From Escherichia phage EK5, in sequence record PQ805429.1: a stretch of 64,000 bases of DNA, one strand, 5' to 3'. The translations under genes were made by a program, and so were the position numbers. Of the stretch, positions 55,201 through 57,310 are shown piece by piece (position 1 is the stretch's first letter; the number at the start of each line of letters is the position of its first letter). The notes beneath the pieces were generated by a model. It made no database searches and was not told the origin of the DNA. It saw only the letters and a program-made list of their open reading frames with translations.

Positions 55201-55279
55201 TCAATGGGTGCCTCTGATAAAGGGGCACAATTTAAAGGTTAATTAGATGAAAGGGTTTACCCTTCAGGTGGATTAGAAA

Positions 55280-57310
55280 ATTTGTGGCATCGTATTAGCT
55301 GGCGGTAATCTGTCAAGCACTGATTTAGACGTATTTAACCAACTCTTTTATGCTGGAGTATTCCGAGGACAACATTCCTCCGGTATCTTTGGTCAGCGTA
55401 AAAGTACTAAGGAAGTCTTCACTTATAAAGAAGCTCTTCCTTCTTTCGCATTCATCCTACAAGATGAGTACAAGAAGCACACCACTGGTGAAACAGCTTA
55501 CACTGTAGCACCTTCATGGATTGTTGGTCACAGCCGTCATGCAACGAAAGGTGCAGTTAACGCCAAGAACGCCCATCCTTTCCAACATGGTAACATCACT
55601 CTGGTTCATAATGGAACCTTGATGGACCAAGACCTGTTACCTGACAGTAAAAACTTCGAGGTAGATAGTGAGAACATCTGCCACTCTATTAACACTATTG
55701 GTGCAGCAGAGACTATTCAAAAGCTGGATGGTGCTTTCACCTTAATCTGGCATGATGCTTCTGATAACCGCCTTCATATCATTCGTAACGAAGAGCGTCC
55801 TTTCCATCTCGCACGTTGTAACAGAGATTGGTTTGGCGCTTCTGAAGAAGATATGCTGATGTGGATTCTGAAGCGTTCGAAGTCTCACAAGAACCGTATT
55901 GATGAGCATTTTGAGTGTAAAGTTGGTACAGAGTATATCTTTGACATGTCTAATAACAGCATGACACTGGTTGAAGAGGTCGCCCACGAGCTTCCGGTTT
56001 TTACGGTAGTCAATCGTTGGGGCAATTACTACTCGAACAATTACAGCCAAAGCAACTATCAAAGTTCCTCAAAAAGCAGTACAAGCAATCCTTACGACAC
56101 GAAGCCGGGTGTGACAGCGGCAGACGTTCGTCGAAGAAACGCAGTGGTAAGTCAAAACAAAATCGCAAGCGATCGAAACATTGATATTCGCCGCGATATG
56201 ACTGTGGAAATCACTCCGCATGAGTTTGTTCCTTATGCAACTGCCGGTGCTGTTCCTTCTCGTGGTAAGATGATTGGTTATATCTACGATGAGAAATCTC
56301 AAGAGTATATCGAAGGTGATGTTCATAACGTAGACATTAAGGCTTATCAGGATGCCCTGAAAGACCCTAAAATTGTTTACCGTGGGACAGTATCCTGCAT
56401 CTCCGAAGTCAATGCTATGGTCCGTTTAGTGATCACAGCAGGTCGTTTTGTTGACCCATCTCTGGAGAAAAAGGAGCCTGAGTCAACTACTGCTGACTTC
56501 GATGATGATATCCCTTTTGATATGAATGATAGTTTCGTCAACAAGAATGGTGTTACTATCACTCGTAAATTCTGGGAAGCGCACTCTCATGGTGATTGTG
56601 GTGGTTGTGATAAGCACATTGATTGGAAGGATGCACCTAAAGCAGCCTTCGCATATCAGTGCTATTGGCATCCTGAATGTCTGGAAGGTTTGACTAAACC
56701 TAAAGAGGAAGAAGAGGAGGAAACTCCTATTGGTGTTTGTGAAATCTGCGGTGAAGTTAAAACAGAGAATGAGTTCGATGATGAACTTAGTCGTCTTCGT
56801 GGTGAAGATATCTGTAAAGTCTGCGCTGTAGAAGTAAAGAAGAAAGTGTCTAATGCTACGATCAAAGATGGTTATGTCTGGATTAAAGCAACAGATACAA
56901 CAAACGCCCGTCGTCCTGAATTCGCTTTACGTGTAACTGAAGATATGATCGGTCGTATGACTGTATTACCTTCCTCAGCGAAACAGACAGGCATCACTCT
57001 GGAGGATGTTGTTGATGCTTATGTTGAGAAACGTAGCAACAGTATTTTTGCAATCTCAACTAAGCCAAAAAAGGAGGAACCTGCTGAGAAAGCAGGTGTG
57101 TTTCCTGAATCACGAACAGCTCTCCGCAAAACTGTCGTCAGCTTCGACGGAAACCGAAGCACTGACTTCACCAAAGCAATGTGGTCAACCCTCGGCTACT
57201 GCTCAGAGTGTTTTAAGCAGATTCCGTGGCGCGATGCTGAAAGTTGTACGCTTGGTTCTATGAATCAAGTTTATTGTAATTCTCCTAAATGTTCATTGAA
57301 TAGAGGTTAA
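55280..57310 (+). CDS. Class-II (Ntn) glutamine-amidotransferase-like protein with C-terminal zinc ribbons
   Basis: CGIVLAGG (compare PurF MCGIVGI), HSRHATKGAVNAKNAHPF and LVHNGTL match GATase-II signatures; three CxxC pairs near the C-terminus; 5' end non-canonical (see findings). Confidence 0.7.
   Translation: MCGIVLAGGNLSSTDLDVFNQLFYAGVFRGQHSSGIFGQRKSTKEVFTYKEALPSFAFILQDEYKKHTTGETAYTVAPSWIVGHSRHATKGAVNAKNAHPFQHGNITLVHNGTLMDQDLLPDSKNFEVDSENICHSINTIGAAETIQKLDGAFTLIWHDASDNRLHIIRNEERPFHLARCNRDWFGASEEDMLMWILKRSKSHKNRIDEHFECKVGTEYIFDMSNNSMTLVEEVAHELPVFTVVNRWGNYYSNNYSQSNYQSSSKSSTSNPYDTKPGVTAADVRRRNAVVSQNKIASDRNIDIRRDMTVEITPHEFVPYATAGAVPSRGKMIGYIYDEKSQEYIEGDVHNVDIKAYQDALKDPKIVYRGTVSCISEVNAMVRLVITAGRFVDPSLEKKEPESTTADFDDDIPFDMNDSFVNKNGVTITRKFWEAHSHGDCGGCDKHIDWKDAPKAAFAYQCYWHPECLEGLTKPKEEEEEETPIGVCEICGEVKTENEFDDELSRLRGEDICKVCAVEVKKKVSNATIKDGYVWIKATDTTNARRPEFALRVTEDMIGRMTVLPSSAKQTGITLEDVVDAYVEKRSNSIFAISTKPKKEEPAEKAGVFPESRTALRKTVVSFDGNRSTDFTKAMWSTLGYCSECFKQIPWRDAESCTLGSMNQVYCNSPKCSLNRG

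Follow-up and report, generated by a model that had tools for sequence, protein, structure and literature searches.

A probable AUU start codon adjoining the catalytic cysteine of a class-II glutamine amidotransferase in Escherichia phage EK5 and its place in a hairpin and Shine-Dalgarno leader conserved among phages

The 64,000-nt stretch of Escherichia phage EK5 DNA (PQ805429.1) analyzed here, hereafter the window, carries on its plus strand the gene of a class-II glutamine amidotransferase in which the codon of the catalytic cysteine is directly preceded by ATT. Over this region the sequence matches Escherichia phage ES17 at 100% identity and dozens of phiEco32-like podoviruses (Kuravirus, Gordonclarkvirinae) at 96-100%. 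The gene lies within a cluster (52667-58950) comprised of a COOH-NH2 ligase (PF14395), a 205-residue protein without a family match, an amidoligase (PF12224), the amidotransferase, two small open reading frames (ORFs) and an ATP-grasp protein. At its 5' end the frame reads ATG (55247-49), AAA GGG TTT ACC CTT CAG GTG GAT, TAG (55274-76), AAA (55277-79), ATT (55280-82), TGT (55283-85) and GGC ATC GTA. Re-reading of the sequence reproduced exactly the codons and coordinates given in an earlier note on this DNA, as well as the Shine-Dalgarno (SD) sequence AGGTGG (55266-71) that it had placed 8 nt (55272-79) from ATT. Taken from ATT, the full coding sequence (CDS), a homologue of phi32_83, extends over 55280..57310 and contains 676 codons including the start, corresponding to a mature protein of 675 residues and 76.0 kDa. 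The first canonical in-frame start in the list of ORFs is TTG 55619, followed by ATG 55622. The note had held that a start at TTG 55619 would delete the whole catalytic domain; such a start would remove residues 1-112 and with them the catalytic core, including Cys1, Arg28-Gly29 and His109-Asn110-Gly111, but not the entire domain of approximately 246 residues.

The leader upstream of ATT consists of several adjoining elements on the plus strand. A hairpin, UGAA(A)GGG-UUUA-CCCUUCA, is predicted at 55248..55266 with a core stem AAGGG/CCCUU (55251-55264), and ATG 55247 lies base-paired in its 5' arm. In Aeromonas phage BUCT695 the hairpin differs by a single change, located in the loop. It is followed by the SD AGGUGG (55266..55271), which is GGNGG when set in register with the family consensus GGAGG; its distance to the start, 8 nt, is shared by the other 21 unique leaders described below. 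The 8-nt spacer AUUAGAAA (55272..55279) holds the in-frame TAG, and the same spacer with its in-frame TAG (ATTAGAAA) recurs without an upstream ATG in two loci (L060 and L138) whose proteins are approximately 40% identical to that of the window. ATG 55247 and TAG 55274-76 delimit a 9-codon in-frame mini-ORF (55247..55276, MKGFTLQVD*) with a counterpart in BUCT695 (MKGLTLQAD*); it most likely arises incidentally from the sequences of the hairpin and spacer. The spacer stop codon was considered as a functional feature and found no support, stop triplets in the last 9 nt being no more frequent in AUU/AUC leaders (10/13) than in canonical-start leaders (40/63; p = 0.52). The long-range pairings of the minimum-energy fold were likewise dropped, as they are not kept in BUCT695. 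A scan of 55100-55450 against Rfam 15 returned only chance matches (best 13-17 bits against gathering scores of 44-70).

The protein encoded downstream was assigned to the class-II glutamine amidotransferases, a group of N-terminal nucleophile (Ntn) enzymes. The domain (55283..56020, plus strand; residues 1 to approximately 246 of 675 counted from the TGT-encoded Cys) was recognized by Pfam GATase_6 (55 bits, cut-off 27) and GATase_7 (27.4, cut-off 25). A search of the PDB with the single protein gave no match, whereas a profile of 18 diverse homologues matched the glutaminase domains of GlmS, PurF and AsnB. Position 1 of this profile, the Cys, aligns with residue 1 of mature GlmS (1xff) and PurF (1ecb and 1ao0), and the RG, HNG and Asp motifs align as well. 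Cys1 is invariant in the 18 homologues, as are R28-G29, H109-N110-G111 and D128, which line up with the RG, HNG and D of GlmS. In alignments of 6 and of 18 sequences the Cys is the first conserved residue of every homologue. The identification of TGT 55283-85 as the Cys1 codon of an Ntn amidotransferase, put forward in the earlier note, is thus supported by the alignment to residue 1 of GlmS and PurF and by the Pfam scores above threshold. In the C-terminal part of approximately 430 residues no Pfam match and no synthase domain like those of GlmS, PurF or AsnB was detected; this part contains several CxxC pairs. Between 56500 and 57310 paired-Cys motifs resembling zinc ribbons (HGDCGGCDKH...CYWHPEC; CEICGEV...CKVCA; CSECFKQ...CNSPKC) were observed together with an acidic EEEEEE stretch.

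With Cys1 as a marker of the true N-terminus, each homologue reveals its own start codon. In a comparison of 99 homologous loci, 76 of them metagenome loci found with an 11-sequence alignment, the codon directly before Cys1 was a start or near-start codon in all 99. The metagenome loci carried ATG (55), ATT (13), ATC (4), TTG (3) and GTG (1). Among named phages, ATG precedes Cys1 in Proteus J3S and Privateer, Salmonella SE131 and PKM.Hi.22.6, Aeromonas LAh_9, PJNS034, SCYZ1, p2-10_Or1, RIO-1 and a Vibrio phage; TTG in Citrobacter CVT22; ATC in Pseudomonas phage O4; and ATT in all Kuravirus and Suseptimavirus and in Aeromonas BUCT695. In the ATG-start relatives the ATG adjoins the Cys codon, without a propeptide. 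Near-cognate (AUU/AUC) starts make up approximately one fifth of the sampled family loci. On a neighbour-joining tree of the N-terminal domains they fall at no fewer than six places among ATG sister lineages, a scatter showing that near-cognate starts are recurrent and long-lived in this family. The reading preferred in the earlier note, initiation at ATT 55280 and removal of Met to expose Cys1, is supported by these comparisons: a start-like codon precedes Cys1 throughout, Cys is the first conserved residue, and, as shown below, the sequence upstream of TTG 55619 is under strong purifying selection.

The note had also looked to the same junction in related genomes, where an ordinary ATG-TGT would point to a local mutation or sequencing error. 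Both ATT and ATG occur before the Cys codon, ATT in all Kuravirus and Suseptimavirus and in BUCT695 and ATG in most other relatives. The junction is identical in approximately 98 phiEco32-like phage records and two Aeromonas phage records, and an ATG version of the leader was found at ≥99% identity in no phage record, the 98 phiEco32-like ones included. The arrangement is neither chance nor error.

Comparison of the leaders revealed a shared layout for AUU/AUC starts: a hairpin of 5-7 bp, a linker of 0-2 nt, GGAGG, exactly 8 nt, AUU or AUC, and UGY GG. Hairpins were counted by an explicit script with controls, since the rigid geometry of a covariance model (R1, five members) misaligned hairpins with 0- or 2-nt linkers; in the 64-kb window this model found one site, at 55244-55287, as expected. 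Of the 22 unique AUU/AUC leaders, with approximately 17 different stem sequences, 21 had a hairpin of 5-7 bp whose end lies 0-2 nt from the SD, compared with 3.4% of composition-matched shuffles. Furthermore, viral contigs were scanned with the pattern GGAGGAT-N6-ATY-TGY-GGN-NTN-RT, which does not demand a hairpin. Sixteen of the 22 matches were true amidotransferase ORFs, and all 16 had an SD-abutting hairpin, each different, while chance genomic matches to the same pattern had an adjacent hairpin in 13 of 118 cases. In bacterial and archaeal genomes 118 of 120 pattern matches were due to chance, suggesting the module is essentially viral. Within the protein-based sample, an adjacent hairpin occurred in 9 of 13 AUU/AUC leaders versus 1 of 63 canonical-start leaders (Fisher p = 5e-8, uncorrected for relatedness), and the sole canonical-start leader with a hairpin (L096) falls inside an AUU/AUC clade. 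The SD was stronger as well, with a median duplex energy of -9.3 kcal/mol in AUU/AUC leaders versus -6.55 kcal/mol (p = 0.003), and close ATG sisters such as L027, L070 and L073 have a weak SD and lack a hairpin. These comparisons indicate a genuine hairpin that is tied specifically to AUU/AUC starts. The recurrence of the same hairpin, SD, 8-base spacing and ATT or ATC in many distant phages argues for a selected way of initiating rather than an error. The conservation of this module across lineages is apparently a new result.

To characterize selection on the 5' region, the window was compared with Bas89 and ECBP2 (82-84% protein identity). For codons 1-112, which lie upstream of TTG 55619, the ratio of nonsynonymous to synonymous substitution (dN/dS) was 0.077 with saturated synonymous sites (proportion of synonymous differences, pS, 0.69-0.76), indistinguishable from the values for the next 134 codons (0.072-0.085). 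This pattern shows codons 1-112 to be coding and functional. In the same genome pairs the 52-nt leader was identical at 50-52 of 52 positions. Across Kuravirus and Suseptimavirus the leader (55230-55282, set against L005, L006 and L008) shows essentially no variation, and it differs at two positions in Aeromonas BUCT695, whose protein is only approximately 52-54% identical. Conservation of the leader is at the nucleotide level, without synonymous variation.

Taken together, it is probable that translation of the amidotransferase starts at AUU 55280-82, as part of a conserved initiation module of hairpin, SD, 8 nt and AUU, and that the formylmethionine (fMet) is removed to expose Cys1. Several observations weigh against this interpretation. 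The SDs of the window (GGUGG) and of BUCT695 (GGCGG) are weaker than the consensus GGAGG (-5.9 kcal/mol). The leader by itself folds no better than shuffled sequences (z = 0.13), the case for the hairpin being a between-lineage comparison, and four AUU/AUC leaders (L104, L051, L097/L099 and L159) lack an adjacent hairpin. The statistics take unique leaders as independent although the lineages are related. The hairpin and SD would not by themselves require all 52 nt of the Kuravirus leader to be invariant, as they are. Finally, the published proteome table of phage SU10 uses the mass of the truncated gene model, so that N-terminal peptides could not be scored and the table is silent on the N-terminus.

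Initiation at AUU might instead be secondary to translation of the mini-ORF, ribosomes starting at AUG 55247, melting the hairpin, terminating at UAG 55274-76 and restarting 3 nt further on at AUU while held by the SD within the mini-ORF. This route has points in its favor: AAGG lies approximately 8 nt upstream of AUG 55247, the mini-ORF is kept with its ATG and TAG between Kuravirus and BUCT695, and a long upstream ORF ends at UAG or UAA 4 nt before AUU in three loci (L118, L128 and L136). Moreover, the geometry of stop, 3 nt and AUU equals that of thrS-infC (UAA-GGU-AUU), where reinitiation and de novo initiation have similar shares (PMC3592434). Reinitiation may contribute in this way but is unlikely as the explanation of the AUU start, as the two loci sharing spacer and TAG have no upstream ATG, the BUCT695 mini-ORF has no SD, spacer stop triplets are not commoner than in canonical-start leaders, ATG 55247 is paired in the hairpin stem, and the leader is kept as nucleotides without synonymous variation. 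In six or more loci, moreover, the upstream gene has already ended ahead of the hairpin, and as this is true of at least six lineages, coupling is not a general principle. Propeptides are known in some Ntn amidotransferases (B. subtilis PurF, GltB type), and the earlier note had offered read-through of the TAG from ATG 55247 with a propeptide removed autocatalytically. Such a propeptide would have 11 residues, and its loss would expose Cys1 as in B. subtilis PurF. The ATG is indeed in frame and the mini-ORF is kept in BUCT695. This proposal is nonetheless very improbable: spacer and TAG are shared without an ATG (L060, L138) and other AUU/AUC lineages likewise have in-frame stops without one, stops are not enriched, and the only tRNA of the window is tRNA-Arg(TCT), with no suppressor tRNA encoded there. 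ATG-start relatives place ATG directly before Cys, and the SD spacing fits ATT. No continuous ORF of the propeptide type runs from the upstream start to Cys, as TAG 55274-76 interrupts it, and no coding potential is kept upstream of the stop as in programmed read-through, conservation there being of nucleotides and not of peptide.

The position of the ATG inside the conserved hairpin arm and of the TAG inside the spacer argues against read-through and a propeptide, and equally against the remaining suggestion of the earlier note, a pseudogenised 5' end. In that case translation from TTG 55619 or ATG 55622 would yield only a truncated, non-catalytic protein, and the preceding sequence would be decaying. 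Automated annotation of ES17, Paul and most other records does place the start at 55622, and the SU10 proteomics table lists a 63.8-kDa model. This explanation fails because codons 1-112 are under purifying selection like the 134 codons that follow, with saturated synonymous sites; all catalytic residues are intact and invariant, and the frame is open in approximately 100 genomes and across distant lineages, leaving the probability of truncation very small. A further alternative is that the leader serves mainly as a promoter, a processing site or a binding site for a phage regulator, AUU being a tolerated, weakly deleterious substitution. It would account for the excess invariance of the 52-nt Kuravirus leader and for the A/U-rich stretch between two hairpins. 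A promoter and terminator scan detected no sigma-70-like promoter on the plus strand at the leader, and there is no Rfam match. The gp36-dependent middle/late promoter of phiEco32 has a tAATGTAtA element 6-8 nt upstream of the transcription start (PMC8948821); by eye this element is absent from the leader TTTAAAGGTTAATTAGATG, and the gene lies in the early cluster. AUU/AUC also persists in many lineages, and since only structure, SD, spacing and AUU/AUC are kept elsewhere, a role in translation initiation is indicated. A leader with mainly another function is therefore regarded as unlikely.

For initiation at AUU, the following sequence of events can be proposed. The 30S subunit would bind the SD at 55266-71, and initiator tRNA would read AUU 55280-82. 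By analogy with GlmS and PurF, deformylase and methionine aminopeptidase would then remove fMet, leaving Cys1 as the N-terminal nucleophile. The weak codon would set a low initiation rate that is subject to discrimination by initiation factor 3 (IF3), and the strong SD with its abutting helix could stabilize 30S binding, the helix either holding the SD single-stranded or stacking on the SD-anti-SD helix and so lengthening 30S residence. Such a site would be compensated yet sensitive to initiation fidelity, and the level of the enzyme would be controlled, possibly by cell state. IF3 discriminates against AUU and AUC, and mRNAs starting with AUU are sensitive to temperature, nutrient state and guanosine tetraphosphate (ppGpp) (PMC5499595), so the output could depend on the state of the cell. 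Reported efficiencies vary with context: AUU was 6-8-fold below AUG in one reporter context (PMC3592434), non-canonical codons reached 0.01-2% of AUG in another reporter study (bioRxiv 10.1101/063800), and AUU or AUC gave approximately 5% in a phage lysin construct (PMC5499595).

A more speculative extension, held to be somewhat less likely than not, is that the hairpin, GGAGG, 8-nt spacer and AUU or AUC form a dedicated translational control element, long maintained in a phage amidotransferase family and tying synthesis of the enzyme to initiation fidelity. In such an element the abutting helix would mechanically boost initiation at the near-cognate codon, and fidelity might be set by the ratio of IF3 to ribosomes, ppGpp, temperature or a phage factor reading the invariant Kuravirus leader. 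If true, this would be the first widespread, structurally defined near-cognate initiation element in phages, open to testing in phiEco32, Bas86-94, Pseudomonas O4 and TC6.

The ATT start itself is not new. The CDS already begins at ATT in phiEco32 RefSeq phi32_83 (YP_001671828), in SU10_085 and in the BASEL records Bas86-94 (including Bas89_0080), and the phiEco32 GenBank CDS also overlaps the leader. In a spread sample of 43 annotated phiEco32-like records, however, 38 had no CDS over ATT. The SU10 proteome table gives gp85 as 63.8 kDa (PMC4281155), and the mass computed for the truncated gene model is 63.7 kDa. The papers on TC6 and SU10 do not discuss the start codon. In the searchable literature, outside which the original phiEco32 papers lie, neither a link between an ATT start and a phage amidotransferase nor recurrent AUU/AUC starts in a family of phage enzymes, accompanied by a covarying hairpin next to the SD, were found.

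Further observations concern the start region in particular relatives. In Pseudomonas phage O4 (L033, NC_031274; locus 298-300) the apparent true start is ATC, with a hairpin AACCTC-gtt-GAGGTT and GGAGG 8 nt upstream, and the RefSeq CDS BJD45_gp56 begins 36 codons downstream of Cys1. Phages TC6, IME180 and PPAY probably share this ATC arrangement. Two IMG/VR contigs (L126 and L132) contain a hairpin GCATC-ctaga-GATGC, GGAGGAT, N6 and ATC TGC GG, with an ORF that ends after 12 codons; the copy of the module and gene there may have decayed or undergone a frameshift. In a Hyphomicrobiales metagenome-assembled genome (L165, JAPLOW010000103.1, approximately 2093-2119, minus strand), a GlmS-like ORF is preceded by GGAGGATATAACT ATT without an adjacent hairpin and may represent a cellular class-II amidotransferase with an AUU start. 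Among ATG-start leaders, a motif like TTTAAATGTAA recurs in many Grimontviridae-type relatives (L007, L009, L020-L024, L029), 20-35 nt before the ATG; it bears no close resemblance to the phiEco32 gp36 promoter consensus or to the late promoter consensus of phage 7-11.

The surrounding cluster, from COOH-NH2 ligase to ATP-grasp protein, is conserved in phiEco32-like phages, the amidoligase-amidotransferase pair is found again in Grimontviridae, Bruynoghevirus and other phages, and the genes beside the amidotransferase are of amidoligase, COOH-NH2 ligase and ATP-grasp types. The cluster belongs to the early genes in SU10 and phiEco32 (PMC4281155); the papers searched name no product or target for it. 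The upstream neighbor is the amidoligase gene (gp84 homologue, 54097-55200). Directly 3' of its stop, RNA folding places a terminator-like hairpin with an 8-bp stem (55208..55228, plus strand), which is context outside the start module. The stem shows compensatory changes in Bas89 and ECBP2 (GGGTGCC.../GGGCGC...) and is annotated as a terminator in one record (WFI101126); it is poor in U-tract, none being scored by the terminator scan. Between this hairpin and that of the start module sits the invariant A/U-rich stretch AATTTAAAGGTTAATTAG, a candidate that could act as a processing or standby site. The sole tRNA gene of the window, tRNA-Arg (anticodon TCT), lies at 46228-46303.

These results bear on both annotation and translation. 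Truncated gene models, as in phiEco32-like records and RefSeq phage O4, delete the catalytic cysteine, and because Cys1 fixes the true start, it provides a clean rule for correcting the gene models of the family. The AUU/AUC leaders co-vary with a strong SD and a hairpin of changing sequence and lasting structure, and therewith constitute a natural data set for studying what makes near-cognate initiation work, complete with matched sister lineages that have ATG, a weak SD and no hairpin. The arrangement suggests that the dose or timing of the amidotransferase matters to the phage. The cluster that the amidotransferase gene forms with amidoligase, COOH-NH2 ligase and ATP-grasp genes is widespread and as yet uncharacterised.

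E. coli GlmS and PurF expose Cys1 by losing their initiator Met. The phage protein resembles GlmS, PurF and AsnB in this use of a Cys1 nucleophile and in the common CGIV..., RG, HNG and D motifs, and differs in having no detectable synthase domain and, in many phage members, an AUU/AUC start. With the propeptide enzymes of the B. subtilis PurF and GltB type it shares an in-frame upstream ATG that could in principle encode a short extension; in the phage, however, the frame is cut by TAG, and other lineages lack the extension, which shows no conservation as a peptide. To our knowledge, very few bacterial genes keep an AUU/AUC start, the textbook cases being infC and pcnB. In E. coli pcnB, encoding poly(A) polymerase I, an AUU start limits expression, and the phage gene is alike in its weak AUU start, presumed to hold the enzyme low; we know of no recurrent AUU use across the pcnB gene family and no associated hairpin module. 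The AUU start of infC (AUC in some species), the gene of E. coli IF3, is the target of autoregulation by IF3. Both infC and the phage gene keep a near-cognate AUU/AUC start across relatives, and both have a stop codon 3 nt upstream of AUU, UAG-AAA-AUU in the window and UAA-GGU-AUU in thrS-infC (PMC3592434, PMC5499595). In contrast to infC, the phage gene encodes an unrelated enzyme without evident autoregulatory logic, and its start is accompanied by a conserved SD-adjacent hairpin and a strong SD.

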